Source: Bacteroidia bacterium (GTDB lineage: Bacteria > Bacteroidota > Bacteroidia > AKYH767-A > OLB10). From it: DNA of 64,000 nucleotides. Position numbers and translations under genes: made by a program. How positions within the stretch are numbered: the first letter of the stretch is position 1; the number at the start of each line of letters is the position of its first letter. Of the stretch, positions 3,701-18,157 are shown in pieces. Where the stretch lies: contig JBDTRM010000266.1 of assembly GCA_039931675.1 (NCBI GenBank), forward strand, positions 47 to 64,046. Reading direction: 5' to 3'. The notes beneath the pieces were generated by a model. The model was given only the letters and a program-made list of their open reading frames with translations. It was not told where the DNA came from and made no database searches.

Positions 3701-3831
3701 ATAGACTTGTCGTTATCTTTTTTGATGTTGTATGCATTTGCACTATCAACATATTGTTTCCAAAGTTGACTATATGCCTCGTTTAAACTCATTATGCAAA
3801 TGAAAAAGATGATGATTGATAGATTTTTCAT
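739..3831 (-). CDS. Secreted TPR-repeat / CHAT-domain (caspase-like) protease family protein
   Basis: 1030 aa. N-terminal signal-like MKNLSIIIFFICIMSLNEAYSQ. Nine consecutive 42-aa KLC-type TPR units (AEPLYIEAKQIREKV.GKEH.DYA.SCNNLA.LY..MGQY.K). The C-terminus carries the CHAT His/Cys dyad context: HIASHGFF (His865 codon at 1237-1239) and VVLSACETALG (Cys944 codon at 1000-1002). Confidence 0.85.
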   Translation of the reverse strand: MKNLSIIIFFICIMSLNEAYSQLWKQYVDSANAYNIKKDNDKSIEFYTKANEELKKDSAVTITYAGICDSLGVLYYKTRQYKEAEKFYIEAKLIKEKVIGREHPEYISSCDFLAALYKNMEQFEKAEPLYIEAKKIREKVYGNEHSDYARSCLNLANFYRATVKYDKAEPLYLEAKQILEKVFGKEHPEYAGSCDNLASLYWYMGQYDRAEKLYLEAKQIREKFYGKEHLDYAKSCNNLALVYMELGQYEKSELLYIEAKQTRAKLLGKENREYASSCDNLANLYYSMGQYAKAEPLYIEAIQIRKKVLGSEHSDYAASCNNLANLYKDIGQYDKAEPLYLESKQILQKVFGKEHPYYTGSCINLADLYRHIGEYKKAESALIQARQIKAKTLGIENPDYARSCYILADLYLEMDEFQKAELLILESKEIFGTVLGKQHLDYGLSCANLARLYWLKHQQLKAEEMFKESFFVKAYNLKAIFLFTNEKEKTAFIKNKLGQGDIPYSFYVSGKLKSEQPYSLSLFHRNLILSSSQAVKNQLLSSNDTTLSNKYYEWINLKKHLSVLYSKPINERKEDVAKIEENANQLEKELTRLSSSFKKQQQQADWKDIQNKLQADEASIEFASFQYYNSKRYTDTTLYIAIVLRKDMLLPATISLFNEKQLTDLLSVNSSKTNNEGINWLYTQSGSGENSNLAANKSLYDLIWKPLEKELKGIKTVYFAPAGLLHRIAFAALPVSNKEVLSDKYKLVQLATTASVTDQQPYYVSASDKLQLYGGINYDADSTALKNMVISHPIANNNSRSLPSDLTRGEIWKELPGTQEEINGIKNESSSNYTVSLLSGINATEESMKALDGKNAPVVLHIASHGFFFPDPKDIKTDTSQKFTSGKVFKQSDDPLFRSGILFAGANNAWSGKPIEGIEDGILTAYEVSNMYLPNTKLVVLSACETALGDIQGSEGVYGLQRAFKMAGAQNLVMSLWKVPDAETAEFMQLFYKNLFAKKTISNAFYDAQQVMKNKFRNEPYKWAAWVLVR

Positions 3832-3888
3832 AAGTGAAATGGTATTTAGTTGTTTGTATATATTTTATCTTGGGAAAATCTAAGCGGA

Positions 3889-4806
3889 TTATTTCCAGGC
3901 TGCAATAGCTTCTTTTTCGAACCCGTATTTCAATAAAAATGAAACATAACTTCTCCGTAAAGCACTATCATTCTCATTTGCTTTTATTAAAGCTGCATAG
4001 CGCTCAGAGGCAGCATTGATAAAAGCATTTTTTTCTAACTTTTCAATTTGCTGCAATTGTATTTCTATATTTTTATTACTGCTATCAGCAATTAGTTGAT
4101 CTAATTGTTGCTTTTCGTCTTCAGGCGTGAGTATGTCAAACCAGATCGGAATTTCATCTTCACATCTTCCATCCTTACTGGTCACATTCCAAAAATATTT
4201 ACCTGTCTTACCTTGCAGTATTTCATTAACAATTACAACCTGAATGGTATCTCTTACATTCATCGTTTTAAGCTCTTTTGCTTTATCATCATAAATAACA
4301 AATGAATAATCTGATGCAGGGCTTGTGTTGTGCCATTTGAAAATAATGGAGGCAGCAGATGTTTTTAAACCGTTTAATGGGAATATCTTGTTGTTGCATT
4401 CATCACCACCGCGAGAAACTCCAGCACGTATCCCTGCTACAAACATTTCAAAATCAGAATTCGGATTGACTAATTCATCAAATAAAAACTTAAAGTATTT
4501 ACCGGTTGTTCCTTCGTTTTTTGTAAACCTTGCTTTAGCATTCACTTCACTAACTTTAAAAACCCCCGGTGTATTCAAAACCCAAAAATTGCCATCTTTA
4601 TCCGATAGCGTAACATCAGTTCCTTTTTTAAGAGTAACTACATCGTTTTTATAAATTAACTGTTTTTGTTTTATAATAACCGGTTTTTTACCGGGTTTTG
4701 TCAAGGTAGCATCACCCATTACCAGATAAACATAATAATCAGGTAACACCTGGGCATAGCTTTGCAAACTAAGTGTTGTGAGTATCAGGATGAATAAGTG
4801 TCTCAT
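3889..4806 (-). CDS. Secreted hypothetical protein, possibly FecR-like beta N-domain with a helical C-terminus
   Basis: 305 aa with signal peptide MRHLFILILTTLSLQSYAQ. It lies between the CHAT and CHASE2 genes with short gaps (57 and 9 nt) on the same strand. The N-terminal segment (GDATLTKPGKKPVIIKQKQLIYKNDVVTLKKGTDVTLSDKDGNFWVL) resembles FecR-type sensors. That functional call is weak. Confidence 0.45.
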   Translation of the reverse strand: MRHLFILILTTLSLQSYAQVLPDYYVYLVMGDATLTKPGKKPVIIKQKQLIYKNDVVTLKKGTDVTLSDKDGNFWVLNTPGVFKVSEVNAKARFTKNEGTTGKYFKFLFDELVNPNSDFEMFVAGIRAGVSRGGDECNNKIFPLNGLKTSAASIIFKWHNTSPASDYSFVIYDDKAKELKTMNVRDTIQVVIVNEILQGKTGKYFWNVTSKDGRCEDEIPIWFDILTPEDEKQQLDQLIADSSNKNIEIQLQQIEKLEKNAFINAASERYAALIKANENDSALRRSYVSFLLKYGFEKEAIAAWK

Positions 4807-4815
4807 GAGTTTTAT

Positions 4816-6033
4816 TTATTTAAAGATTGTTTTATACATGTATTTTTTATGCAGCCTTACTGCTATCATCTTGTATATATCTAACAATTCAACACACAAT
4901 GCCAATGCTATCATTATAGGCAATAGAGGAACCTTAACATGAAAACAGTCAAACACCTGCAGAAATAAATACAGTATTAAAAGAATGATAAGAAACTGCT
5001 GAAATAACAGCCAAATGTGTACGGGATGCTTTCGTTTTTTATGTTGAAGTAAAATAGAGTACAGAAATAAAAAAGTGATTATTCCGGCTAACAGGTAAGA
5101 AACAAATTCAGAAGTTTCACTGGCATACTCTCCACTCAATATCATAGAAAGAATATTGGCATGTATTACTATACCATACATATCAGGAAAACTTTTACCC
5201 GCAACCTGTTCATTCAATGGTGAAAAATGAAAGTCCTCCATAATCAATGGCACTTGTTTATCAAAATAACCTACAAGTACTATCTTTCCGGTCAGAATAT
5301 CTCTCAATTGATTTGAACCATCACTATAGAGTAATTCTTCTTTCGATAGGCTGGTATAGTTTTCAAGATTTCCGGTGTAATTAATAATCTCCCATTTTCG
5401 GTTTCGCCTTTTCAGTTCATTAAATTTTTCAGGTGCGAACCTTTCCGCAATAACTGAAGTAAATGCAGGATAAATAGAGTCACCTGCTTTAAGAAAGGGA
5501 AGATAATTTCTAGCCACAGCAAATTGATTTCCCTGAATGTTGGTATATCCGAAATGATAATGGTGATCATTGTCCTCAAAAAAATTATGAGTAAAGGCTG
5601 GCTGATCCAAGGAGGAGTTCATATCTAATTCTGAAGCAAGAATTATATTCCCGTATTGGCTGATTTCATGAAGTAATTTAATGTTCTCGAGGGAATCTCT
5701 TTGCTCCTTAAACACCGCATCAATACCAATTACGGCAGGCGTGTACTTTTCAATTATTCTTATTTGGTCAGCAATTGCATTTCTCTTGTCTGCAACCTGC
5801 ACTAATATTATATTGCTATCTCTTTTTGAGTTCTCCAAATGCTTGCCGGAATAATAGAGATCATATATGTCAAAACCGAGAAAACCCTGCCGGATTGGTT
5901 TGGCAAATTCAAACTTAAAAGGAATAAAGCTTATGCAGAATGTTATAATAAGCACCATTGTGGTGGCTACAAGACTTTCTTTCATGAGATCCTTCATGGG
6001 TTGTATTGGAGTGTTCGGTTTAAAACAGTTCAA
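4816..6033 (-). CDS. Stand-alone CHASE2-like membrane protein (N-terminal TM, extracytoplasmic domain, C-terminal TM bundle, no output domain)
   Basis: 405 aa. One N-terminal TM (VATTMVLIITFCISFIPF). CHASE2-like motifs are present (NIILVQVADKRN ... VIGIDAVFKE ... KIVLVGY). Three C-terminal hydrophobic helices follow. The start may instead be the internal Met at 5997. Confidence 0.6.
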   Translation of the reverse strand: MNCFKPNTPIQPMKDLMKESLVATTMVLIITFCISFIPFKFEFAKPIRQGFLGFDIYDLYYSGKHLENSKRDSNIILVQVADKRNAIADQIRIIEKYTPAVIGIDAVFKEQRDSLENIKLLHEISQYGNIILASELDMNSSLDQPAFTHNFFEDNDHHYHFGYTNIQGNQFAVARNYLPFLKAGDSIYPAFTSVIAERFAPEKFNELKRRNRKWEIINYTGNLENYTSLSKEELLYSDGSNQLRDILTGKIVLVGYFDKQVPLIMEDFHFSPLNEQVAGKSFPDMYGIVIHANILSMILSGEYASETSEFVSYLLAGIITFLFLYSILLQHKKRKHPVHIWLLFQQFLIILLILYLFLQVFDCFHVKVPLLPIMIALALCVELLDIYKMIAVRLHKKYMYKTIFK

Positions 6034-6246
6034 ATATAAATAAAAATGAATACAGCTAATTTAATTTTAGGATGAATTTATTAGTTCTTTTTTCGATTCA
6101 GTAATAACGATAAAATCGATATAACGTTAACTGTAATCCTAACTATTGGGGTTAGTTAAAATAAGATTGAGAGATGGGTAATTGGAATCGGTTTTTAAGG
6201 CCCGAATTCAATTGCCACAACAAGGCGAGGAGCTCCTTTAACTTTT

Positions 6247-6723
6247 TTACAATTCGATTTTGGCAACAAGCTCTTTTTCGTTCAGATACTTTATCACACT
6301 TTCCCAATCGGGAAACTTGTCTGAACCAAAATGAATAAACTCACCTTTAAATTTATCTGAACCATTATGTTTATCACGGTCATCAATCAGGTAATCTCCC
6401 TCATTAAGGTGTTTGTTGTGCGATAAAATTAATCTCTTATAAGCTTCTTTTCCTAAATATTTTTTTACCCATATCAATTTATCATGCCAGGCAGTTGGGT
6501 TCTCCCATGGGGCTGTAGAAAGAATATAAGTATCAAATCTGTCTGCAAGTTTCCTATAGCTTTCAATGGCATCTTCCATAGGTTTCATCAGTGAAAAAAT
6601 ATGAGGTACTTCATCCAGTCGTTCCGCATATTGCTTTTGAATTTCTTCGGATAATTGATTTATCCCTGATTGAAAATCAACCAAGACATTATCCATATCC
6701 ACATAAACTATTTTCTTTTTCAT
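6247..6723 (-). CDS. 5'(3')-deoxyribonucleotidase (NT5C-type, HAD superfamily)
   Basis: 158 aa. HAD motif I DxDxV in MKKKIVYVDMDNVLVDF. The size and the downstream pattern (ILSTAPWENP ... DYLIDDRDKHNG) are typical of the NT5C family. Confidence 0.75.
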   Translation of the reverse strand: MKKKIVYVDMDNVLVDFQSGINQLSEEIQKQYAERLDEVPHIFSLMKPMEDAIESYRKLADRFDTYILSTAPWENPTAWHDKLIWVKKYLGKEAYKRLILSHNKHLNEGDYLIDDRDKHNGSDKFKGEFIHFGSDKFPDWESVIKYLNEKELVAKIEL

Positions 6724-7062
6724 AATTCAATTTGCTTTTTTCACTTTTTCCACTTCTTCTCCCCACAGCCTCCGGCTGGTAGTTAACACAGGTTTGAGCT
6801 TTTGATATATGCTTTTCTTAATATATACCTAAGTTGATTAATATTTAACAATTGTTTTTTTCATTTAATGTTTTGTTGGAATGATACACAAAGAAAAAAG
6901 GAATTTGTGCTTTAGCAAAACGCATTAAGAATTTAACCCGTTTAAAAGAATTTGTTTCTATCTCAGCACAGCAGGATTGGCACTAAGCCAGGAGACTAAA
7001 GCAAGCTACTCTGCAGTGGGGGGAAAGCAAAGATTACATCCCATTTCACTTCGCTCTCAAAA

Positions 7063-9507
7063 TCAATAAGAAATCTTCGCATTTGGCAAAACCAATTTAA
7101 GGTTTTCAATTTGAAGCACTGGAATTTGCGGATTCCCACCTAAATAAATTGTTTTCAGGTTAGGAAGGTTCATCAGTACATCAATATTTTGCAAATTTGT
7201 GCATTGTCTTAAATCCAGAGAATTCAACGCTTTAAGTGCTTTTAATGCATTTATATTTTGTAATTTTAAACATGCCATTAATGATAAAGTAGATAGAGCA
7301 TTGAGTTCTTGCAAATTATCTATATTTTGCAATTCATCGCTATATGCTAAATGCAAATTAGTTAGTTGTTTAAGCCGCTTTAACCCATCAATATTTGACA
7401 ACTTTTTACAGCCTAATAATTCTAAATGATTTAGGTTTATTAATTCATCCAACCCATCTAGACTTTCCAAATGTTCAGCGAAATACAATTCCAAATCAGT
7501 TAGAGATCCTAATCGCCTTAGCGTAGTTAAATCTTTAAGGTTCTCACAATTATATAAAGTTAAATTTGTTAATGAAGTTAGGTTTCTTAAAAAATTGATA
7601 TTTTTAATCTCCCTTTGTTTTATTTGTAATTTTGATAGAAGCGAAAGTTTTTTAATGGGGTCAAAATTTTGGATTTCTCCACAATCTTCTAAGTATAAAC
7701 TACTCAGGTGAGTAAGGTCCTCCAACCCATTTACATTTTTTAAACTTAAACAATAAGTTAAACTTAACTTTTCTAAAGTTGAAAACCCTCTCAAGTCATC
7801 TAAATTAGTGATCCTACTACTATTAGAAATAGAAATGCATTTCAATGACTTTAAAGTATTAATTTTATCAAGCTTACTCATTTGATGAATGGTGTCATAA
7901 TAATCAAAATTAATTTTTAAGGTATCCGGCTGTAAAGCAAAGAAGGAAGGAACTAGACTCTGAAATAAACTGTCAGAAAGAAGTTGGATGTCACTTGAAC
8001 TTATTGTTTTTGTTTGCTCATTCCAAAGCAATCCAGCTCTATTAATTTCTTTAATGGCTTTGGTTTTTTCCCAATTATCAATATTTGTATAATAAGAAGC
8101 GCTGAACAATAAAAGAACACAAATCAAACCAGGTGCGATCCATGGTGTTGTTTTTTGCAACAATGTTTTGCTAATGCCATATACTACTTTTTCTAATTGA
8201 AGGGCAATGAAGTCGTGAGCAATTTGCCATTTTCTATTTCCCTGGGAAATTTCCATTGAATCAAGGCACCGCACTAATCCATGATGTTGCATAATCATCA
8301 TTTGATTATCTAATTGTGAAATGGTCAAACTTGAATTTTTACTCAATTGGCTAATTGTTCTAGGTTTAGCTGTATTGAAGTCCGTGAGCATCCCTTTAAT
8401 TATTGTTGCCCTTTCCATTCTCAATTCTTTACCTAAAGATTGAAGAATGTATTGCTTTATTAAATTTCCCTTCTGTTTTAGAGGATATTCTTTACTAATC
8501 ATCTGCTGTAAAATAATTCCTAAAAGGTTGAGTACTATTGGACGAAGTGTTATAGGAGAATCAATAGAGGCTGCTTCCTTAAGAATACGATTTAACTGAA
8601 GATCAGGTATATCTAATCCTGGACAGCTTTTCAAAAATTTGGATGCCTGTTTAAAAGTAAAAAGTTTTACTTCTTTGAAGTTTATATGTTCAATTCGTGC
8701 CGGTAGGTGAAGTTGATCAATCAGCTGCTGAAAATCATCTCGATATGATAAAAGAATCTGAATTCCTTTAGGTGGATTTTTGATGAAATTGTTGAAAAAA
8801 ATTTCTAACTCTTTTATTTCTTCTATTCCTTTGCTTGGTTTAGATGCTTCAGATTGATTTCTGATTAAGAAAAATTCCTCAAATTGATCGAGCACAATCA
8901 ATATTCTCTCATCAGGAAAAAGCATTTTGCTCGCTTCGTTAATTAAATCGTTTACAGTCTCTGCATTAATTGCTGTTTTGGTATTTTCTTCATTTTTTAA
9001 TTTTTCATACAAAATATTTAAGGGATCATGGTAACTTCGCAAAAAATAAACACGTGTTTTTTGTTGTTTTTGTTTTTCTAACTGTGGTATTAAATATGCT
9101 CTTATTAGTGAGGACTTACCCGCACCGGATGGGCCTGTTAAATAAAGAACAGGGGCTCTGGACTGTCTAAGCCATTCTACATATTGTTCATAACCAGCTA
9201 CGAAAAAATTATACTTATCATCAATCCGTGGGGTAGTTGTAAAATACTGTCCGTCTGGTATGCCAGTTGGCCTAAAATCAAGTTCCTTCTTTGCTTTTAG
9301 GGCAGGTCTTAACGTGAAAAAATAAACTGAAATAATTGCAAAAATTACTACAGTCGTGATAATCCATTTGAGGTAGTATAGGTCTTGAGGTATTTTTGAA
9401 ACATAATAGTATAAGTATAGTATTGCAGCAATAAGCATTGCAAACATTAATATGTATTCCTTCACCAGGTAAAGGAATCCAATATAGATATTCTTATTTT
9501 CTGACAC
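7063..9507 (-). CDS. Membrane-spanning STAND-like P-loop NTPase with C-terminal leucine-rich repeats (paralog A)
   Basis: 814 aa. Two N-terminal TM helices (about aa 17-36 and 45-65) are followed by a basic stretch, RPALKAKKE. Walker A is LYLTGPSGAGKSS (nt 9112-9135). Walker B is ILIVLDQFEEFF (nt 8869-8904). A wHTH-like region reads ISQLDNQMMIMQHHGLVRCL...RKWQIAHDFIA. A third TM sits at aa 454-473 (nt 8089-8148). About 11 cysteine-containing LRRs of 22-23 aa follow (L..L..L..L.L..C..L.NI..L; nt about 7123-7875). Confidence 0.75.
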   Translation of the reverse strand: MSENKNIYIGFLYLVKEYILMFAMLIAAILYLYYYVSKIPQDLYYLKWIITTVVIFAIISVYFFTLRPALKAKKELDFRPTGIPDGQYFTTTPRIDDKYNFFVAGYEQYVEWLRQSRAPVLYLTGPSGAGKSSLIRAYLIPQLEKQKQQKTRVYFLRSYHDPLNILYEKLKNEENTKTAINAETVNDLINEASKMLFPDERILIVLDQFEEFFLIRNQSEASKPSKGIEEIKELEIFFNNFIKNPPKGIQILLSYRDDFQQLIDQLHLPARIEHINFKEVKLFTFKQASKFLKSCPGLDIPDLQLNRILKEAASIDSPITLRPIVLNLLGIILQQMISKEYPLKQKGNLIKQYILQSLGKELRMERATIIKGMLTDFNTAKPRTISQLSKNSSLTISQLDNQMMIMQHHGLVRCLDSMEISQGNRKWQIAHDFIALQLEKVVYGISKTLLQKTTPWIAPGLICVLLLFSASYYTNIDNWEKTKAIKEINRAGLLWNEQTKTISSSDIQLLSDSLFQSLVPSFFALQPDTLKINFDYYDTIHQMSKLDKINTLKSLKCISISNSSRITNLDDLRGFSTLEKLSLTYCLSLKNVNGLEDLTHLSSLYLEDCGEIQNFDPIKKLSLLSKLQIKQREIKNINFLRNLTSLTNLTLYNCENLKDLTTLRRLGSLTDLELYFAEHLESLDGLDELINLNHLELLGCKKLSNIDGLKRLKQLTNLHLAYSDELQNIDNLQELNALSTLSLMACLKLQNINALKALKALNSLDLRQCTNLQNIDVLMNLPNLKTIYLGGNPQIPVLQIENLKLVLPNAKISY

Positions 9508-9771
9508 GTCCTTGTAATTGTTCTGTTATATTGTTAATCCCAAAATGCTAAGTGGAAAATTATCACTTGCATTTTTTTTTGAAACTTTACTTTTCCAATT
9601 GTCGCCTAAAATTGTTATTAGCCAAACTCTCTATTGTTTTTAAAAATAACTGATTATAAGTTCGAAAAACAAGAGTGTATTTTGTGACCTCTAACTCATA
9701 GATTTTCAAATATCTTATGAAGTTAATCTATTTAAACATTCAAATTACCGCACGATTTTTTCAGGACTGAA

Positions 9772-12198
9772 TCAATAAATCAAACCTTTCTTTAGTTTTT
9801 TAATTTGTATTTCAGGCACAGCAGTTCCTATTACAAATACTTCTTTCAAATTAGGAAGCCTCATCAACGCATCAATATTTTCTAAGTTTTTACACATCCC
9901 TAACTCTAAATCTGTTAAGGCTGTAAGTCCTTTTAATCCATCTATATTTTTTAATTGTCCGCAATCATTTAAATCCAAATGAGTCAAAGATTTCATAGCT
10001 TTCAACCCATCTACATTTTGCAACTCATCACATTCGGATAATTGTAAATCAGTTAAATTGATAAGTTCTTTTAACGCATCAACATTTTGTAACTGATCGG
10101 CACCTAAATCCAAACTAGTCAAATTGGTTAGTGCTTTTAATGGTCCAAAATCTTTTAATACCCAACAAGAACTTATTTCCAGATAACTCAAAGTAGTTAA
10201 TTCTTTTATTCCATCTATATTTTCCAATTTGTTGCAATTTCGCAACTCTAAATAAGTCAAAGTGTTGCATTGCTCTAAAGCATTAATATTTATCAAATTA
10301 TAGCAACCTGCTAAAAACAAATATCTCAAAGCTTTCAATCCTTTCAAGGGATCAAAACTTTTCAAATTTTTACAATTATTAATTTTCAAATTAGTTAACG
10401 TAGTTAGAGTTTTTAAGGCTTCAATATTTTGTAGGTTATTAACCTCATCTAAATTTAACCTTGTCAAGGTTGTAAGACCTTTTAAACCATCTAAATTTGA
10501 AATTTTATCATTGTTAGAAACGTAAATGCATTTCAATGATTTTACTTTGTTTAATCCATTAAGATGACTAATTTGGTGGACAGTATCTTCATGTAAGAAA
10601 TTTAATTTTAATGAATCTGGTTGTAATATAAACAAGTCAGAAATGAGACCTTGAAATAAACTATCAGTGAGTAATTGGACATTACTTATGCTTATTGTTT
10701 TTGTTTGCGTATTCCAAAGCAAACCAGCTTTATTAATATTTTCAATTGCTTTTTTCTCTTCCCAATTTTGAATATTTGCATAGTAAGTAGCGCTGAAAAA
10801 TAAAAGAACGCAAATCAGAGCTGGAGCAATCCATGGCGTTAATTTTTGCCAAAATGTCTTTCTGATGCCATGTACTACTTTCTCTAATTGTAAGGCAATG
10901 AAATCATGAGCAATTTGCCATTTTCTATTGCTTTGAGAAGTTTCATTTGGATTAAGGCACCTTACTAATCCATGACGTTGCATAATAATCATTTGATTAT
11001 CAAGTTGAGATATAGTAAGACTAGAGTTTTTGCACAATTCACTTATGCTACTAGGCCTTGCAGTGCTAAAGTCAGTGAGCATGGCTTTAATGATTGATGC
11101 GCGTTCCAACCTTAATTCTTTGCCTAAACATTCCACAATATAACGCTTAATAAGCTTTTCTCCGCGGTTAGGTAAAGATTGATATCCTAGCATTCTTTGC
11201 AAGATAATTCCTAAAAAATTAAGCACAATTGGACGTATTGTTACTGGCGTATCAATGGAGGCGGCCTCCTTCAAAATTCGACTTAATTGTAATTGGGGTA
11301 TCTCTAATCCAGGACATTCCTTAATAAATTTTTCTGCCCATACAAAAGTTAATGGGTTTAATTGCTTAAAATTAATATCTTCAGTTCGTGCCGGCAGTTG
11401 AAGTTGGTCAATCAGCTGTTGAAAATCGCTTCGGTATGATAAAAGAATTTGTATTCCTTCGGGAGGGTTATTAAGAAATCTCTGGAAAAAACTCTCTATT
11501 TCTTTTATTTCCTTTAGCTCTAATCTATTCTCTAAATCTTCCGGATGGTTATGAAGTAAGAAGAATTCTTCAAATTGATCAAGTATAACCAGTATCCGTT
11601 CCCCCGCAGAAAGCATTTTGCTTGCCTGAAGAAATACATTATACACAATTTCTTCCGTAATTAATGGGTTTGTATCATCTCCAATTTGCAATTCTTCATA
11701 TAGAGTTTTTAAGGGATCATGGTAACTTCTTATAGGATAAACATTTGTTAACGGATGCTTAGATTTTTGTAATTGCGGTGAGATGTATGCGTTAATAAGA
11801 GAAGACTTACCAGAACCAGAAGATCCGGTTAAGTATAGAATAGGTTCTTTAGTTTGTTTTAACCATTCTAAGTATTGCTCGTAACCAGAGGCAAAAAAAT
11901 TATATTTATCATCAATACGAGGAGAGGTTGTAAAATACTGTTCATCTGGCTCACCCTTTGGCCTGAGATTAAGCTCTTTCTTTTTTATTAAAGCTGGTCT
12001 CAATGTAAAAAAATAAGCTGAAAAAATGGTAAGAATAACTATCACTGAGACAATCCATTTAAGATAGAATAAATCATCGGGTATTTCTGCTACATAATTG
12101 GACAAGTATAATATTGCTGCAATAAGCATTGCAAAAATTAATATATACTCCTTTAGCTCGGATAGGAATCCAATATAGATATTCTTTTTTTCTGACAT
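9772..12198 (-). CDS. Membrane-spanning STAND-like P-loop NTPase with C-terminal leucine-rich repeats (paralog B)
   Basis: 808 aa and colinear with paralog A. It has the same TM-TM-NTPase-wHTH-TM-LRR order: Walker A LYLTGSSGSGKSS (nt 11803-11826), VILDQFEEFF, and RKWQIAHDFIALQLEKVV identical to A. The LRR part is visibly more diverged than the NTPase part. Confidence 0.75.
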   Translation of the reverse strand: MSEKKNIYIGFLSELKEYILIFAMLIAAILYLSNYVAEIPDDLFYLKWIVSVIVILTIFSAYFFTLRPALIKKKELNLRPKGEPDEQYFTTSPRIDDKYNFFASGYEQYLEWLKQTKEPILYLTGSSGSGKSSLINAYISPQLQKSKHPLTNVYPIRSYHDPLKTLYEELQIGDDTNPLITEEIVYNVFLQASKMLSAGERILVILDQFEEFFLLHNHPEDLENRLELKEIKEIESFFQRFLNNPPEGIQILLSYRSDFQQLIDQLQLPARTEDINFKQLNPLTFVWAEKFIKECPGLEIPQLQLSRILKEAASIDTPVTIRPIVLNFLGIILQRMLGYQSLPNRGEKLIKRYIVECLGKELRLERASIIKAMLTDFSTARPSSISELCKNSSLTISQLDNQMIIMQRHGLVRCLNPNETSQSNRKWQIAHDFIALQLEKVVHGIRKTFWQKLTPWIAPALICVLLFFSATYYANIQNWEEKKAIENINKAGLLWNTQTKTISISNVQLLTDSLFQGLISDLFILQPDSLKLNFLHEDTVHQISHLNGLNKVKSLKCIYVSNNDKISNLDGLKGLTTLTRLNLDEVNNLQNIEALKTLTTLTNLKINNCKNLKSFDPLKGLKALRYLFLAGCYNLININALEQCNTLTYLELRNCNKLENIDGIKELTTLSYLEISSCWVLKDFGPLKALTNLTSLDLGADQLQNVDALKELINLTDLQLSECDELQNVDGLKAMKSLTHLDLNDCGQLKNIDGLKGLTALTDLELGMCKNLENIDALMRLPNLKEVFVIGTAVPEIQIKKLKKGLIY

Positions 12199-12356
12199 GT
12201 GTTATAGTGTCAAATATTCTTTTCAAATTATTCCACAATTTTCTTGTTGTTATTTAGCAATTGAATCTGTTCTTGTAGAATTCAAACTTTTAAAACTATC
12301 TAATGTTCCTGATCTATCTTTTGTGCAGTACAAGATCAAATGAATGTTTTATTTGC

Positions 12357-13835
12357 TTATTTACTGTTCAATGCCGCTACAATTGTTTTAAAATTCAATA
12401 ACCCTGCTTCTAAGTTTTCAATTATTTCCATTGCCAAAATATCAGGGTCTGGTAAATTGTCTAAGTCGGCTAAAGAGCTGTCTTTAAGCCAGGTTATATC
12501 TAATGATGTTTTGTCTCTGGAAATTAATTCATCATAATCGAATTTTCTCCAGCGACCTTCAGTATTTGATACTGACCATGTTTCCTTTCGCTTGTGCCTG
12601 TTTTTAGGATTGTAACAGGCAATGAAATCCTGAAGGCTTTCAGCATTCAAAGGGTTTTTCTTTAGTGTGTGGTGTACGTTAGTTCTGTAATCATATACCC
12701 AAACTTCTTTCGTCCAAACATTTTTACTTGCTGGTTTACTATCGAAGAACAAAACATTTGCTTTAACTCCATTTGCGTAAAAAATTCCAGTTGGTAAACG
12801 AAGTATTGTGTGCAGGTCGGTTTTTTGTAAAAGTGCTTGTCTTACTTTTTCACCAACACCCCCTTCAAATAAAACATTATCAGGTAAAACAACAGCAGCC
12901 TTGCCTGTTGTGTTAAGCATGGACATAATGTGTTGCAGAAAGTTAAGTTGCTTGTTACTTGTAGTCACAATGAAATCCTGGCGATTGTAGATTAAATCAT
13001 CTTTTTCTTCTTCACCATCTTCGTTAGTAATGGTCATGCTACTTTTCTTGCCAAACGGAGGATTAGCTAGCACGTAATCAAAGGTTGTTTTAGGAGTTGA
13101 CAGTAAGGCATCCTCCGGTGAAATGAAACTTTCTTTTGCACTAATATCTCCTATGCCATGCAAGAAAAGATTCATTAGGCAAAGTCTTCTTGTGTTGGCA
13201 ACAATTTCGTTTCCGAAAAAGGTATTTGATTTTAAAAACTCTCTTTCTGATTTATCTAAATCCTGCCTGGCAATAAAATCATAAGAACCTAAGAAGAATC
13301 CACCGGTGCCGCAGGCCGGGTCTCCAATAGTTTTCTTAGGTTCAGGCCTTACACATGCTACCATGGCTGCTATTAATTCTCTTGGTGTGAAGTATTGCCC
13401 TGCACCACTCTTGGTATCTTCAGCATTCTTTTTTAAAATGCCTTCATAAATATCTCCTTTGTCCTTAACTCCCATGCCCACCCAATTTTCAGCGCCAATA
13501 AGTTGGATCAATTTATAGAGTTTGGCAGGGTCTTGAATTTTATTTTGGCTTTTGGTAAATATCTGACCCAGAATCCCTTTTTCTTTTCCAAGTGACCTTA
13601 GAATTTTATTATAATGGCGTTCTAATTCATCACCACTTTTATCAACCAGACTTTCCCAATTTAGTTCTTTAGGTATATTGATGTCTTTACGTTTGTGAGG
13701 TGGTTTTGAATATTCATCTGCCATTTTTAGAAACAGTAAATAGGTTAACTGCTCTAAATAATCTCCATAACTAACGCCATCATCACGAAGGGTGTTACAG
13801 AAATTCCAAATTTTTTGAACTATTGTGCTTGTCAT
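12357..13835 (-). CDS. hsdM: Type I restriction-modification system, N6-adenine DNA methyltransferase subunit M
   Basis: 492 aa. HsdM N-terminal domain (IWNFCNTLRDDGVSYGDYLEQLTYLLFLK). SAM motif DPACGTGGF. Catalytic motif NPPFG (VLANPPFGKK). Confidence 0.9.
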   Translation of the reverse strand: MTSTIVQKIWNFCNTLRDDGVSYGDYLEQLTYLLFLKMADEYSKPPHKRKDINIPKELNWESLVDKSGDELERHYNKILRSLGKEKGILGQIFTKSQNKIQDPAKLYKLIQLIGAENWVGMGVKDKGDIYEGILKKNAEDTKSGAGQYFTPRELIAAMVACVRPEPKKTIGDPACGTGGFFLGSYDFIARQDLDKSEREFLKSNTFFGNEIVANTRRLCLMNLFLHGIGDISAKESFISPEDALLSTPKTTFDYVLANPPFGKKSSMTITNEDGEEEKDDLIYNRQDFIVTTSNKQLNFLQHIMSMLNTTGKAAVVLPDNVLFEGGVGEKVRQALLQKTDLHTILRLPTGIFYANGVKANVLFFDSKPASKNVWTKEVWVYDYRTNVHHTLKKNPLNAESLQDFIACYNPKNRHKRKETWSVSNTEGRWRKFDYDELISRDKTSLDITWLKDSSLADLDNLPDPDILAMEIIENLEAGLLNFKTIVAALNSK

Positions 13836-13840
13836 AAATT

Positions 13841-14776
13841 TTAATTGGAAAGAGAGGGGATCAGATTAGGTAACCATTTGTTGTATATATCTCGCTTTTC
13901 GTGAGAGAAAATACAAGCCCATGCAACTTTTGAAAAAGGCGCGCTCGGAGAAGTCAATTCTTTGAGTCTAATACACGCCTTATTCAGAATTAATCTTTTA
14001 GCTTGTGCGTTTACTGGTTTTATAAGTTGTTTATTATATTCATATAACTCACCTTCGCACAGTCGCCATATTTCGGTTCTTTGATGTTTAAGTTGTTCCA
14101 AGTCTAAATGAAATAACTCTATGGAAATTTCAGCTCTGAATTTATCATCCTCAGGGGCATTACCAAATACAATGGTGGAGCCATCTTTATCAAAAGAAAT
14201 CAAGGTGGTATCGTATAATAGAAGAGGGTCTAGCAATAACGGAACTTCGACATCTAAATTATCGTTTGGTGGCTCTGTGCAATAAGAACCTCCGGTCAAG
14301 TCTAAAGGAAAATAGTCGCCTTTCCCATTAACTTCTTCCCCTTCTGAAAATCTGTCACTTCTTCGCATATTGACTAAGGAACCCACTAACCTATAATTTC
14401 TCCAGTTGTAAGCCAACCACCAGTAACCGTTTGTATTAATAACTTGCCCATTGTATATATTAGATAGTTCGTTGTTTTCCTCGGACACGTTAATATCATT
14501 TAGCTTATATTTATATTGCTTAGATCTATTTTTAGGTCGAAAGTGATCTATAACAAATTCACCAGCACCAATTGGGGCCTCGGAATACCAGCACTTTCTG
14601 TGTGATAAGCTATACATTATATTTTGAAGAATGTTCCAATCTGTATTTGTTCTAATAAACATCTTACGCTCTTCTGTCGTCATTGCTTGCATCTGTAGAA
14701 GATATTCCCGTTCGAGCTGCTTAAATTGTTGAACCTCTTCAGTATTTGCTATTGCTTCTATGTTTATATGTCTCAT
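13841..14776 (-). CDS. HNH-like (beta-beta-alpha-Me) nuclease family protein, PtuB/TIGR02646-like, lacking the Zn-binding cysteines
   Basis: 311 aa. KCWYSE...FVIDHFRPK (His78 codon at 14543-14545) ... YNWRNYRLVGSLVNMRR matches the C.YCE...IDHF.PK...W.NL...C..CN..K layout of ATPase-associated HNH proteins. Its start codon abuts the stop of the upstream ATPase (TAAATG at 14774-14779). Confidence 0.55.
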   Translation of the reverse strand: MRHINIEAIANTEEVQQFKQLEREYLLQMQAMTTEERKMFIRTNTDWNILQNIMYSLSHRKCWYSEAPIGAGEFVIDHFRPKNRSKQYKYKLNDINVSEENNELSNIYNGQVINTNGYWWLAYNWRNYRLVGSLVNMRRSDRFSEGEEVNGKGDYFPLDLTGGSYCTEPPNDNLDVEVPLLLDPLLLYDTTLISFDKDGSTIVFGNAPEDDKFRAEISIELFHLDLEQLKHQRTEIWRLCEGELYEYNKQLIKPVNAQAKRLILNKACIRLKELTSPSAPFSKVAWACIFSHEKRDIYNKWLPNLIPSLSN

Positions 14777-16384
14777 TTATTCGCCTTTTTCTCTCATTAT
14801 TTCATCTGCAACTTCCTTTGAAATTCTTTGAAGTTCCTCCTCCTCTTCTTTTGTAAGAATTGATTTTTGAAATATTTCATGACGACTCGTTAACTCGAGG
14901 TATTGATTATACCTCGAATCAAGTGTTACATCATAAAATCCCACATTTTCTAACTGATCAACAAGTAAATTATATTCTTCTATTTCATCTGGTTTTATTT
15001 TATCTGAATTTAAGATAGTTTGCAAGTATCGCTTACGGTTAAGATTATCTTCAACCTCTTTACTCATGATTGACGGAAGTCCAAATAATTCACTCGTTAA
15101 AATGCCAGAAACACTTCTTGCTTTAGGGTCAATTTCTGGCTGTTCAACTTTTATTTTACCTTCTTTAGTTGTTCGGAAAATTCTCACTTCTTCTTTTTTC
15201 AATCCACCAATTACTAAAGGGTCATGAGTATTTAAAATGATTTGGGTGGATGCGGGTCGTTGAACGACTTTATCCAAAAATTCCAGATAACGCCATTTCC
15301 AAATGGGATTTAAGTGCGTATCAGGCTCGTCTAATAAAATTAATGAATCTTCTTCTTTTGTAAATTTTAATAATCCCAACACCGTTAGGAGTTGTTGCTC
15401 TCCTTCACTCAATTCTTTGAAAGTGATGCTTCCGTCAACATTGGTCTTTTTTACTTTAATGCGAACCTCTGAAATTAATTTTGATATATAAGTACTTTCT
15501 AACGCTTTGAATAAAGCAGTATTACTGGTGTAAGTATTAGCAAGCTCTTTTAATTTATCTTTTCCTTTTAGATAAAGATAAAGTTGATCTTGGGAGTCAT
15601 ACTCATCAAAATCAACTTGAACATCTTTATGGAAATAGATTGGAGCCAATGACAATTTCCATAGTTTATCAAGAAAGGGACGAACTAATCCTTTCGCTGT
15701 CCAAAAGATATCATCCGGGTTATCTTTAATTTTACTCTTAGCCCATCCAGGCATTTTTAATACGAATAAAATTGATTCAATATCTTTTATATTCAAAACT
15801 TCATTTAGAAATTGAATACTTTCCTTTTCTTCATCTTCATGGGTAAAGTATGCCAAAAGCACAAAATATGAATGTACCAATTGAACGTAAAATAGCTTTC
15901 TTAAAGAATCCAATTCTGTTTCTTGAAAATCGTCACTAGTGATTCTTTTATAAAAATTATGTTGATGCTGCCAAAAGTGTTCCTTGAGTTTATTGCTTAA
16001 CCCTGAGTAATAAGTGAAAACGTATTTAGGCTGATATTGTGTTTTATTTGCCTCCGAGAAAAAAGACTTAAAGGTTTTAATTGGTTCACCATTTACTATA
16101 ATATTGTACTCCCTTTTTTTTGTTTTTTTATTTTCTGAAATAGCAACATCTATTTTGTTATCTCCAATACTGTAAATAATATTGTAATCGAATTCGGGGA
16201 GTACTCTTTTATTTTCTGTACTCAAATCAAGATATTTGAAAATCAGAATCAATGCTTCAATGAAATTCGATTTGCCTGTAGCGTTTTGCCCAAGTAAAAC
16301 GGTTTTCATTTCCTTTTCGTCAAGGTCAATGCTAAACTGCTTTAAGTTCTTGTAGTCTTCAATGTAAACCTTATCTATCCTCAT
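14777..16384 (-). CDS. ABC/SMC-like AAA ATPase (AAA_15/AAA_21 type, PtuA-like)
   Basis: 535 aa. Walker A GQNATGKSN (nt 16268-16291). ABC signature-like LSEGEQQ (aa 325-331). Walker B LILLDEPDTHLNP. H-loop LNTHDP. Its start overlaps the hsdS stop as ATGA at 16381-16384. Confidence 0.7.
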   Translation of the reverse strand: MRIDKVYIEDYKNLKQFSIDLDEKEMKTVLLGQNATGKSNFIEALILIFKYLDLSTENKRVLPEFDYNIIYSIGDNKIDVAISENKKTKKREYNIIVNGEPIKTFKSFFSEANKTQYQPKYVFTYYSGLSNKLKEHFWQHQHNFYKRITSDDFQETELDSLRKLFYVQLVHSYFVLLAYFTHEDEEKESIQFLNEVLNIKDIESILFVLKMPGWAKSKIKDNPDDIFWTAKGLVRPFLDKLWKLSLAPIYFHKDVQVDFDEYDSQDQLYLYLKGKDKLKELANTYTSNTALFKALESTYISKLISEVRIKVKKTNVDGSITFKELSEGEQQLLTVLGLLKFTKEEDSLILLDEPDTHLNPIWKWRYLEFLDKVVQRPASTQIILNTHDPLVIGGLKKEEVRIFRTTKEGKIKVEQPEIDPKARSVSGILTSELFGLPSIMSKEVEDNLNRKRYLQTILNSDKIKPDEIEEYNLLVDQLENVGFYDVTLDSRYNQYLELTSRHEIFQKSILTKEEEEELQRISKEVADEIMREKGE

Positions 16385-18156: not shown

Positions 18157-18157
18157 T

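Follow-up and report, generated by a model that had tools for sequence, protein, structure and literature searches.

Two adjacent genes beside a type I R-M operon share one architecture

The window (the whole stretch of DNA analysed, 64,000 nt) contains, within a low-GC stretch, two adjacent genes on the same strand that encode proteins of one architecture: a two-helix N-terminal transmembrane (TM) hairpin, an NTPase, a third TM helix (TM3) and leucine-rich repeats (LRRs).

9772..12198, minus strand: copy B (upstream copy), ORF with ATG start, 808 aa; 2TM hairpin, nSTAND1 NTPase, TM3, LRR
7063..9507, minus strand: copy A (downstream copy), ORF with GTG start, 814 aa; architecture as copy B

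Copy B is identical to database protein P0001, titled 'MAG: Bacteroidia bacterium leucine-rich repeat protein'. The GTG codon of copy A is precisely where its homology with copy B sets in; the database version of this protein, P0003 (791 aa), starts 23 codons later and thereby loses TM1. The two proteins align end to end with 59% identity (E = 0) and their genes are separated by a 264 nt spacer. The locus adjoins a type I R-M operon with an embedded Septu system (PADLOC): hsdM ends at 12357, 158 nt from copy B, and on the other side an NT5C-like ORF starts at 6723, 339 nt from copy A. The gene pair itself, with its sizes, strand and common architecture, and the distances to the type I R-M/Septu operon and to a deoxyribonucleotidase gene had all been given in an earlier sequence-only reading, and our coordinates agree with them.

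The NTPase is a STAND module of the nSTAND1 clade

Between the hairpin and TM3, both proteins carry a P-loop module with the following elements.

10855..11949, minus strand: copy B STAND module (P-loop NBD, helical domain, winged helix), aa 84-448; from Pfam nSTAND1, AlphaFold and Foldseek
8164..9258, minus strand: copy A STAND module, aa 84-448; Pfam nSTAND1 at 70.3 bits, aligned with copy B
11803..11826, minus strand: copy B Walker A, GSSGSGKS, aa 125-132; read from the sequence
11566..11592, minus strand: copy B Walker B, LVILDQFEE, aa 203-211; read from the sequence
10900..10908, minus strand: copy B H431-D432-F433 (HDF), at the C-terminal end of the winged helix, ~20 residues before TM3

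The NTPase of both copies is a STAND NTPase of the nSTAND1 clade with an NLR/Apaf-1/Cdc6-like fold. Pfam nSTAND1 (PF20703) matched copy A with 70.3 bits (3.2e-19) and copy B with 61.0 bits (2.1e-16), against a cut-off of 27.1. The match spans profile positions 25-172 of 379 in the window proteins and positions 25-340 in the relatives L053 and L040. AlphaFold modelled aa 84-448 of copy B alone with a pLDDT of 88.6 and a pTM of 0.86, and Foldseek matched this module to Cdc6/Orc1, SSO1545, Apaf-1, CED-4, ZAR1, NRC2 and NLRP14 (E 1e-6 to 8e-10; TM-scores of 0.50 for Apaf-1 and 0.51 for NLRP14). With the whole chain, the matches were ZAR1, NLRP3, NLRP14, NRC2, RPP1 and Sr35; the whole-chain model of copy B has a mean pLDDT of 90.4 but a pTM of only 0.59, so the relative placement of its domains is uncertain. 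The profile and the structural matches, for both module and whole chain, thus bear out the STAND-like NTPase proposed earlier.

Walker A reads GPSGAGKSS in copy A and GSSGSGKSS in copy B, Walker B reads (L)IVLDQFEEFF and (L)VILDQFEEFF, respectively, and RKWQIAHDFIALQLEKVV was found in both, so that every motif quoted in the sequence-only reading is present in the two copies. In an alignment of 66 family members (A1), Walker A residues G125, S127, G128, G130 and K131, Walker B residues D207, Q208, F209 and E210 (copy B numbering) and R256 are invariant. The HDF columns are invariant both in A1 and in alignment A3. HDF follows a predicted beta wing (E426-429 in the AlphaFold model of copy B), and we infer that it occupies a position analogous to that of the MHD/LHD motif in plant NLRs and Apaf-1, whose histidine touches the bound ADP when the switch is off.

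Other NTPase families fitted less well. No KAP_NTPase Pfam match was found at E <= 1 in either copy, and ABC_tran matched only 19-21 residues (E = 0.04-0.05); PDB sequence matches were limited to UvrA, over ~25 residues in the Walker A region. YobI/Tmn was rejected because there was no Tmn PADLOC match and the TM helices flank the whole NBD-HD-WHD module without interrupting it. For NACHT (PF05729), copy A reached 19.5 bits against a cut-off of 26.7 and copy B had no match listed. In PADLOC-DB v2, no Avs, bNACHT or Tmn model matched either copy, and the similarity there was at P-loop level (mad3, E = 4e-4, 44 residues). Profile searches therefore place the NTPase of both copies in nSTAND1 and not in KAP, Tmn or an ABC-type transporter ATPase family.

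Three predicted membrane helices probably place the sensor on the periplasmic side

11968..12198, minus strand: copy B N-terminal tail and TM1-TM2 hairpin, then basic stretch RPALIKKKELNLRPKG, aa 1-77; hydropathy and AlphaFold
9277..9507, minus strand: copy A N-terminal tail and TM hairpin, aa 1-77; hydropathy, 71% identity with copy B
10780..10842, minus strand: copy B TM3, aa 453-473; hydropathy 1.87, within helix 449-490
8089..8151, minus strand: copy A TM3, aa 453-473; hydropathy 1.57, weaker than copy B

Kyte-Doolittle hydropathy peaked at aa 19-37 (2.05 in copy A and 2.23 in copy B), aa 48-66 (2.32 and 2.27) and aa 453-471 (1.57 and 1.87), and 5-6 Lys/Arg occur in the 20 residues after TM2 in both copies. 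AlphaFold placed the hairpin helices of copy B at residues 7-38 and 41-77, and TM3 in one uninterrupted 42-residue helix (449-490). The hairpin with its strongly basic continuation and the third helix, both recognised at first reading, are thus recovered, and the latter is kept family-wide.

An exhaustive family search returned 838 representatives, and the predicted membrane-spanning layout is a family trait shared by several hundred bacterial proteins. Among 210 members, TM3 was present in 189/200 that were testable, TM2 in 181/185 and TM1 in 143/185. TM3 is a hydrophobic segment of at least 19 residues that lies at a fixed distance after HDF, down to ~25% identity.

From hydropathy, charge bias and domain logic, the NTPase is probably cytoplasmic and the LRR sensor is probably on the periplasmic side of the inner membrane. 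Lys and Arg are enriched at the NTPase side of all three helices in the family, with mean K+R of 4.24 after TM2 and 4.23 before TM3, while the TM1-TM2 loop averages 1.74 and the flank after TM3 2.47; across TM3, the family-wide bias toward the NTPase side has a p of about 4e-8 (Wilcoxon). Some relatives carry a TIR domain N-terminal to the hairpin, which argues for a cytoplasmic N-terminus: since TIR depends on cytoplasmic NAD+ and the NTPase on ATP, both would be inside and the domain after TM3 outside. YbbR, which stands in the C-terminal position in some relatives, is extracytoplasmic in CdaR, and the best 79 genomic loci of the family all come from diderm phyla. The receptor-like layout suggested earlier (cytoplasmic NTPase, outside LRR) is still a prediction but better supported than at first reading, on the strength of TM3 conservation, the family charge bias and the N-terminal TIR of relatives.

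Taken by themselves, the two window proteins would also fit a membrane-tethered intracellular sensor of the NLR/Avs type, because copy A has a TM3 of borderline hydrophobicity (1.57) and the Lys/Arg counts before and after TM3 differ little (4 vs 2 and 3 vs 3). TM3 would then be interfacial, re-entrant or packed on the hairpin, the LRR would be a cytoplasmic detector of phage proteins, and the N-terminal helices would be a pore-forming effector, as in Avs and TM-effector bNACHT proteins. The cysteine-rich LRRs point the same way, this cysteine-consensus type being typical of cytosolic LRRs, as do the ankyrin repeats found after TM3 in one relative, given that most known ankyrin proteins are cytoplasmic. 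It also agrees with this arrangement that the characterised bacterial STAND sensors all act in the cytoplasm (PMC13001434; 10.1101/2022.07.19.500537). We nevertheless consider it quite unlikely: the hydrophobic segment after HDF persists in nearly all testable members and into distant homologs, positive charge is enriched before TM3 and not after it family-wide, the continuous TM3 helix in the AlphaFold model has no re-entrant loop, and YbbR and FGE-sulfatase domains occur as C-terminal alternatives to the LRR.

The two copies differ most in their LRR surfaces

9781..10722, minus strand: copy B C-terminal domain, a cap and eleven 23-residue LRRs, predicted extracytoplasmic, aa 493-806; Pfam, AlphaFold and Foldseek
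7072..8031, minus strand: copy A C-terminal LRR domain, aa 493-812; Pfam LRR families

Several Pfam LRR families scored above threshold over aa ~540-805 (LRR_4 at 4.2e-21 in copy B). The AlphaFold model of copy B has 11 beta-strands at 22-23 residue spacing between aa 557 and 788 (pLDDT >95), the DNA has a 69-nt periodicity that matches the repeats, and Foldseek matched the copy B domain to internalin A. Cys occupies the consensus LxxLxLxxC position in 7/10 central repeats of copy B, and the LRRs contain 6-7 consensus cysteines. These data fit the initial count of about 11 cysteine-containing repeats of 22-23 aa.

Amino acid identity between copies A and B varies by region:

N-terminus and hairpin: 71%
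NTPase core: 58%
Helical/winged-helix part: 71%
TM3 (aa 451-475 region containing TM3): 80%
LRR: 42%

Divergence is therefore unequal across the domains, as the sequence-only reading had noted, with the LRR at 42% and the other regions at 58-80%. Within the LRR, identity was 72% at scaffold positions, 20% on the concave-face surface and 29% at other surface positions; the concave face was not significantly more diverged between the copies than the other surface positions (p = 0.32). The LRR dN/dS was 0.37 with saturated dS (about 1.2-1.6), so positive selection in the LRR is not demonstrated. Of the suggestion of a diversifying sensor, the stronger divergence of the LRR thus stands, while diversifying selection does not. 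Similarly, the description of the copies as nearly identical in places applies to short protein stretches only, as DNA identity is 68-83% without long identical tracts. We conclude that the copies are old duplicates with the same switch and membrane core and almost entirely different LRR surfaces, and this LRR divergence shows what are, as judged from sequence, diverged specificities. With different surfaces, the two copies would recognise two different ligands.

Paired plant NLRs and NAIP-NLRC4 offer another model, in which the tandem copies are an obligate sensor/helper pair, one binding the ligand and the other executing the response in hetero-oligomers. The genes are adjacent on the same strand, the copies are mutual best matches, and the 67% identity of the switch and TM core (aa 1-475) would permit mixed oligomers. 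This model appears very unlikely, because a second tandem copy was found in only 2/87 sequences (86 fetched loci plus the window); tandem duplication is rare and single copies must be functional. In addition, Walker A, Walker B and HDF are intact and the LRRs full-length in both copies, and the spacer between the genes suggests separate promoters.

Relatives vary at both ends around a constant core

In some relatives, additional domains precede the hairpin: TIR (TIR_2), SEFIR, EAD11, DUF4062, SMEK_N or trypsin (Trypsin_2). In others, the C-terminal LRR is replaced by FGE-sulfatase, YbbR plus TPR, or ankyrin repeats. TIR, SEFIR, EAD11, trypsin and DUF4062 were each added upstream of the hairpin and none replaced it; hence the predicted hairpin is a constant membrane core and not a swappable effector. 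The proposal that the hairpin is the sole effector candidate accordingly fails in the sense of a modular effector, and an effector role in the two copies is still inferred. As these add-on domains are joined to it, the hairpin may serve for nothing more than anchoring and transduction, in which case the window proteins might need a further partner or output.

Cultured Paraburkholderia, Bradyrhizobium and Pararobbsia are among the hosts of the family. A tyrosine integrase gene immediately precedes each of two closer homologs, which are 46% and 32% identical to copy B, and one of these two belongs to an element that also has a relaxase. In 51 other genomes, the 119 genes next to family members gave only about 8 PADLOC matches at E <= 1e-10 (raw counts), most of which look housekeeping (trypsin-type proteases, TatD, RtcR); a Pfam scan found PDZ domains in the same neighbour set as the trypsin-type proteases. 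No conserved partner gene was detected, with no Pfam family in more than 3 of the 119 neighbours. The defence-island setting therefore holds at the window locus, with its type I R-M and Septu genes, and does not extend to the neighbours of relatives; an association of homologs with defence loci was largely not seen in these 51 genomes.

These neighbourhoods bear on whether the family is immune at all. A periplasmic LRR could bind a self or environmental ligand (a cell-wall fragment, polysaccharide or partner protein), and the STAND switch could organise envelope-stress signalling, adhesion or social behaviour as a non-immune receptor or scaffold, without suicide or phage defence. Homolog neighbours that are metabolic or housekeeping without defence enrichment, several closer homologs in ordinary gene contexts, and the 94% of family members that have no recognisable effector domain are all consistent with this, as is the failure to find family homologs in plasmid and phage collections. 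MalT and AfsR are examples of STAND NTPases with a regulatory and not an immune function. We still regard a non-immune role as unlikely. The family has no DNA-binding or enzymatic output domain to suit regulation, its distribution is patchy with sensor swapping, the LRR surface diverges rapidly, and R-M/Septu or integrase-linked elements contain the window locus and the two closer homologs. Further, nSTAND1 was defined in counter-invader systems, and TIR, SEFIR, EAD11, DUF4062 and trypsin add-ons are a conflict-system set (PMC8195603). The variable N- and C-terminal domains around a constant core support a putative conflict or immune role.

A proposed transmembrane NLR-like receptor

The copy A/B pair is a new variant of bacterial NLR-like STAND proteins, with topology and function that are predicted from sequence. 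We propose, with moderate confidence, that each gene encodes a self-contained inner-membrane NLR-like receptor of the nSTAND1 clade with an immune-type mechanism. Each protein would comprise, in order, a cytoplasmic N-terminus, the TM1-TM2 hairpin, a cytoplasmic STAND module ending in HDF, TM3 ~20 residues further on and a periplasmic eleven-repeat LRR. A periplasmic ligand would bind the LRR, with phage entry proteins, envelope-damage products and competitor toxins as candidates, and the movement would be relayed via TM3 directly to the winged helix. This would release the ADP-locked state, allowing ATP binding and lateral oligomerisation within the membrane. Once clustered, the units of three membrane helices would then be the output, most likely through ion leak or depolarisation that leads to growth arrest or death, and in relatives the output would instead come from clustered N-terminal TIR, SEFIR, EAD11 or protease domains. 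Envelope sensing has precedents in Kiwa, Zorya and SNIPE (PMC13434031) and in Tmn (PMC13001434).

The window proteins belong to the same clade as the nSTAND1 counter-invader NTPases, with Pfam matches above threshold (PF20703; Kaur, Iyer, Burroughs & Aravind 2021, PMC8195603), and share the logic of those systems, i.e. a variable TIR/EAD/trypsin N-terminus and an FGE-sulfatase or repeat C-terminus around a constant switch (PMC8195603; DGR-targeted nSTAND1-FGE, PMC10907252). Unlike the nSTAND1 counter-invader proteins, they have neither an EAD nor an enzymatic effector. In the published descriptions searched, nSTAND1 sensors are intracellular, whereas the sensor of the window proteins is predicted to be outside, and those descriptions include no subfamily with the NTPase between a 2-TM hairpin and a third TM helix. 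Avs/bNACHT proteins (Kibby et al., 10.1101/2022.07.19.500537) likewise combine effector, NTPase and sensor in one polypeptide with repeat sensors that include LRRs, and some have TM regions (10.1101/2022.07.19.500537). However, their characterised members are soluble and sense cytoplasmic phage proteins, whereas in the window proteins a conserved TM helix precedes the LRR.

Plant CC-NLR resistosomes (ZAR1, Sr35, NRC; PDB 6j5t) were the best whole-chain structural matches, with NBD-HD-WHD followed by the LRR and a conserved His-Asp motif that closes the winged helix (MHD in plants, HDF in the window proteins), at 12-14% sequence identity. In ZAR1, oligomerised N-terminal helices breach the membrane, which is the output proposed here; ZAR1 is soluble until activated and has a cytosolic LRR, whereas the window proteins are predicted to be constitutively membrane-integrated with the LRR on the opposite side. 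Toll-like receptors (TLRs) and plant LRR receptor kinases (RLKs) resemble the window proteins in their outside LRR ectodomain, membrane span and cytoplasmic signalling part, and in the TIR-bearing relatives a TIR on the inside is even predicted to accompany an LRR on the outside. A single TM helix and the lack of an NTPase switch set TLRs and RLKs apart from the window proteins, in which three TM helices bracket a STAND ATPase, and homology is limited to generic LRR and TIR folds.

Tmn/YobI, KAP, Kiwa, Zorya and SNIPE (PMC13001434, PMC13434031) share an inner-membrane location and proposed envelope sensing of infection. In Tmn and PifA, a P-loop NTPase is coupled to changes in membrane physiology, as proposed for the window proteins. 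Tmn/YobI has TM helices inside the P-loop domain and KAP has four TM helices, both unlike the window proteins; the sensing arms of Tmn are cytosolic, in contrast to the predicted LRR side, and Kiwa, Zorya and SNIPE fall outside the STAND class.

More broadly, and only tentatively, the family may represent a bacterial receptor class that unites both arms of eukaryotic innate immunity within a single chain, fusing a TLR/RLK-like outside LRR to an NLR-type STAND switch, with a cytoplasmic TIR in some relatives. The periplasm would be where such receptors pick up phage entry machinery, competitor toxins or envelope-damage products, at a stage when no invader molecule has reached the cytoplasm or in cases where none ever does, and they would oligomerise into a membrane-breaching or TIR-activating assembly. 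If true, a family with such an outside sensor would bring periplasmic surveillance within the scope of the STAND switch. It would also pose a mechanistic question without known precedent, namely how a ligand signal from beyond the membrane reaches the winged-helix/ADP lock by way of one helix. The family is a natural test set, with a constant core, swappable outside sensors (LRR, FGE-sulfatase, YbbR plus TPR, ankyrin) and swappable inside add-ons (TIR, SEFIR, EAD11, protease). Should its role lie outside immunity, the family would nonetheless amount to a novel kind of ATP-gated transmembrane receptor.

Two tandem nSTAND1-LRR genes

Two adjacent genes in the window encode proteins that align end to end with 59% identity:

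9772..12198, - strand: copy B, the upstream paralog (ATG start, 808 aa)
7063..9507, - strand: copy A, the downstream paralog (GTG start, 814 aa)

The sequence-only reading had described an N-terminal membrane hairpin, a STAND-like NTPase, a third membrane helix and leucine-rich repeats (LRRs). Its motifs were all read in the ORFs, i.e. both Walker A forms (GPSGAGKSS and GSSGSGKSS), both Walker B forms (VLDQFEEFF and ILDQFEEFF) and, in both copies as claimed, the segment RKWQIAHDFIALQLEKVV. Kyte–Doolittle hydropathy was maximal at aa 19-37 and 48-66 (the hairpin, TM1-TM2) and at 453-471 (TM3), and the basic stretch expected after the hairpin lies directly behind TM2. Resemblance to copy B sets in precisely with the GTG codon at 9507, with none upstream of it, and this GTG is the correct start of copy A. 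In the public annotation, copy A is P0003 (791 aa), which begins 23 codons late and drops TM1 (window 9439-9507, - strand). A scan of 6000-12600 for sigma-70 promoters returned fewer promoter-like sites than shuffled sequence, and a terminator scan of the same range gave one weak candidate, within a gene. As the promoter consensus of Bacteroidota differs from sigma-70, the scan is uninformative.

The NTPase is of the STAND type

In Pfam, nSTAND1 (PF20703) matched aa ~108-267 of the two copies with 70.3 and 61.0 bits (cut-off 27.1), and several LRR families matched aa ~540-805. Scores for NACHT, AAA_16 and ATPase_2 were sub-threshold. Membership of the KAP, Tmn and NACHT groups was ruled out by profile scores (PADLOC, and Pfam without a KAP match); PADLOC gave no model for either copy.

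An AlphaFold2 model built from a 66-sequence family alignment (mean pLDDT 90.4, pTM 0.59) starts with two long helices (7-38 and 41-77) and continues with an alpha/beta NTPase, which leads into a helical and then a winged-helix domain, an uninterrupted helix at 449-490 and an LRR solenoid with one strand per 22-23 residues. Searched whole against the PDB with Foldseek, it matched plant and animal NLRs (ZAR1 6j5t, NLRP14, NLRP3, NRC2, RPP1 and Sr35), and its LRR part matched internalin A. The isolated NTPase module (aa 84-448; pLDDT 88.6, pTM 0.86) matched Cdc6/Orc1, the archaeal ATPases SSO1545 and PABY2304, Apaf-1, CED-4, ZAR1, NRC2 and NLRP14, and is modelled as a STAND/Orc-type NBD-HD-WHD arrangement. 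A profile search of the module sequence against the PDB found no solved homolog, only UvrA matches at the level of Walker A and weak ArsR/GntR winged-helix ones; with the UvrA resemblance confined to Walker A, an ABC/transporter assignment was rejected. The STAND-like assignment was therefore upheld, by the nSTAND1 scores and the NLR/Orc-type folds.

Invariant across the family alignments are Walker A, D207-Q-F-E210, R256, R322-P323 and H431-D432-F433 (HDF; copy B numbering). HDF lies where the winged helix ends, ~20 residues ahead of TM3, and by its position would correspond to the histidine of the MHD/LHD motif in plant NLRs and Apaf-1. A STAND NBD-HD-WHD core between the two-helix hairpin and TM3, with the LRR beyond TM3, is directly seen or strongly predicted.

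The membrane layout is shared across the family

Relatives with nSTAND1 numbered 92 in a word-indexed search. When 1.84 billion representatives were searched exhaustively by phmmer with aa 1-480 as the query, 838 proteins passed E <= 1e-3, of which 478 also passed 1e-10 and 183 passed 1e-30, and among the best 150 most alignments run from the hairpin to TM3. In a sample of 210 members with both Walker A and HDF, TM3 (a hydrophobic segment 15-60 residues past HDF) was present in 189 of the 200 with enough sequence, TM2 in 181/185 and TM1 in 143/185. Positive charge is enriched on the NTPase side of the helices: across the 66-sequence alignment, mean K+R was 4.24 after TM2 and 4.23 before TM3, whereas the TM1-TM2 loop averaged 1.74 and the stretch behind TM3 2.47 (Wilcoxon p ~4e-8, which describes a trend rather than an independent-sample probability, as the sequences are related).

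Relatives with additional domains indicate the orientation. At least 100 residues precede TM1 in 12 members, and in those scanned the extra domain is TIR_2, SEFIR/TIR, EAD11, SMEK_N, DUF4062 or Trypsin_2. The order in all such cases is domain, TM1, TM2, Walker A, HDF, TM3, C-terminal domain. Since a TIR NADase and an ATPase are necessarily cytoplasmic and exactly two helices separate them, the N-terminus should lie inside and the domain after TM3 outside. The LRR itself is replaced in relatives by FGE-sulfatase, YbbR plus TPR, ankyrin repeats or unassigned domains. YbbR domains of CdaR are extracytoplasmic. The architecture TIR, 2TM, nSTAND1, TM, YbbR, TPR occurs at L040 4227-7541, likewise at a second locus (L043), and in the database relative P0128; here one protein unites a TIR on the cytoplasmic side with a YbbR domain after TM3. 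A scan of one genome per species gave at least 224 family loci, of which the best 79 belong throughout to diderm phyla (Bacteroidota, Planctomycetota, Verrucomicrobiota, Acidobacteriota, and Alpha-, Beta- and Gammaproteobacteria).

Some features of the window proteins count against a spanning topology with outside LRRs. TM3 of copy A is of marginal hydrophobicity (1.57), the two window proteins themselves differ little in charge between the two sides of TM3, and in 6-7 of their repeats a cysteine fills the consensus position, a pattern more usual for cytosolic LRRs. The frequency of TM3, the family-wide charge bias and the logic of the pre-hairpin TIR domains support the predicted receptor-like layout, with a cytoplasmic NTPase and an outside LRR, and we regard the proposed architecture and topology as likely.

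The two copies are old duplicates

Copies A and B are mutual best matches and are 67% identical in aa 1-475 and 46% in the C-terminal part; the database relative P0002 is nearly as close as they are to each other. Divergence differs by region, at a saturated dS of ~1.2-1.6.

Regional divergence of copies A and B (region, aa identity, dN/dS)
N-terminus and hairpin, 71%, 0.19
Linker, 72%, 0.10
NTPase core, 58%, 0.21
Helical/winged helix, 71%, 0.13
TM3, 80%, 0.19
Juxtamembrane, 64%, 0.29
LRR, 42%, 0.37

Within the LRR, identity was 72% at scaffold sites, 20% at variable sites of the concave face and 29% at other variable sites. A concentration of differences on the concave face was not significant (20% vs 29%, Fisher p = 0.32). 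At the DNA level, 300-nt blocks share 68-74% identity and long identical tracts are absent, so recent gene conversion between the copies was rejected. Together with the regional divergence, this shows that the duplication is old, and that the copies have kept the same switch but differ in most of their LRR surface. The proposal of a diversifying sensor holds in that the LRR has diverged most, but its dN/dS of 0.37 at a saturated dS does not demonstrate positive selection. Tandem pairs are rare among relatives: a second copy was present in 2 of the 87 sequences examined, the window and a Thermoanaerobaculia MAG (L025 7504-12091), the sole other locus with two tandem family copies.

Defence genes flank the pair in the window but not in the family

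The pair is flanked by the following genes:

18158-20932, - strand: hsdR (PADLOC)
16381-18156, - strand: hsdS (PADLOC)
14777-16384, - strand: ptuA of Septu (PADLOC)
13841-14776, - strand: ptuB of Septu (PADLOC)
12357-13835, - strand: hsdM (PADLOC)
6247-6723, - strand: NT5C-like (5'-deoxynucleotidase) ORF, 158 aa
4816-6033, - strand: stand-alone CHASE2 membrane protein
3889-4806, - strand: 305-aa protein with no family match
739-3831, - strand: TPR+CHAT protease, 1030 aa

Upstream on the same strand lies a type I R-M operon (12357-20932, - strand) with Septu inserted between hsdS and hsdM; its five genes are tightly packed or overlap. The spacers are as the sequence-only reading gave them: hsdM is 158 nt away and the NT5C-like ORF, downstream, 339 nt. 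The NT5C match spans profile positions 60-153 of 180, and part of the N-terminal catalytic region may be missing from the predicted protein. Further downstream, the row of TPR-CHAT, 305-aa and CHASE2 proteins (739-6033, - strand) resembles a conflict-type module of its own, of the caspase-like/CHASE2 kind. Over the pair (6-12 kb), 31.7-32.4% of bases are G or C; the values are 33.5-35.4% over the R-M/Septu operon and mostly 34-41% in the remaining window, with peaks of ~40-43% at 22-24, 38-40 and 54-56 kb. The low GC of the pair is compatible with horizontal acquisition. No tRNA gene was found in a scan of the whole window, which thus has no tRNA-linked island boundary, and the identifiable genes past 21 kb are non-defence (TsaD, TamB and a protein with a T9SS sorting tail).

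Neighbours of the homologs were collected from 51 species genomes (up to two ORFs of at least 150 aa per side, within 3.5 kb; 119 proteins). Only ~8 of the 119 had PADLOC matches at E <= 1e-10, namely trypsin-type proteases (three, with PDZ domains in the same set by Pfam), PLD proteins (two), an RtcR/PspF-like protein, a TatD and a methyltransferase, and an association of the homologs with defence genes was not borne out. The description 'inside a defence island' is therefore fair for the window locus, with its type I R-M and Septu genes, but is not a property of the family. No conserved partner gene or operon was found, the commonest Pfam family occurring in 3 of the 119 neighbours; without a recurrent neighbour family, the gene is a stand-alone unit.

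At two loci (L001 7738-12514 and L004 5008-9622), a tyrosine integrase and a small ORF (82 or 63 aa) precede the nSTAND1-LRR gene, and L001 additionally carries a relaxase and a NikA-like gene. This suggests that the gene travels in an integrative element, carried at the end next to the integrase. Other homologs are surrounded by ordinary genes, and plasmid and phage collections, which are biased to cultured hosts, contained zero homologs and so gave no support from known mobile elements. In a long-read Chitinophagaceae MAG (L087 10001-12424), the homolog is broken into ORFs of 477 and 316 aa. Many of its housekeeping neighbours are fragmented as well (DNA pol III, carbamoyl-phosphate synthase and ComEC), indicating assembly frameshifts rather than real truncation.

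Relation to known systems and a proposed mechanism

The name nSTAND1 goes back to Kaur et al. 2021, who gave it in counter-invader systems whose FGS lectin domains they term 'intracellular invader-sensing' (PMC8195603), and DGR targets include nSTAND1-FGE proteins (PMC10907252). Kiwa, Zorya and SNIPE (PMC13434031) and Tmn (PMC13001434) sense phage at the membrane, yet are unrelated to the nSTAND1 family. Full-text literature searches returned neither a conserved 2TM-nSTAND1-TM-sensor family nor a STAND protein that places an LRR outside, although Aravind-lab supplementary architecture tables may list such proteins.

In the proposed mechanism, the LRR would bind a periplasmic ligand and TM3 would carry the change directly to the adjoining winged helix and HDF, leading to nucleotide exchange and then to oligomerisation in the membrane. 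On the model of ZAR1 and of the TM effectors known from Avs, bNACHT and CBASS, clustered TM helices would provide the output by letting ions leak or depolarising the membrane. In relatives, the output could instead come from TIR, SEFIR, EAD or protease domains brought into clusters. The hairpin had been put forward as the effector candidate, and for the window proteins this is the least secure step: extra domains are added ahead of the hairpin and not in its place, so it is a constant core, as anchor or transducer. By analogy, a hairpin pore as the output is conceivable but somewhat doubtful, whereas a role for these proteins in conflict or immunity is the reading we favour with reasonable confidence.
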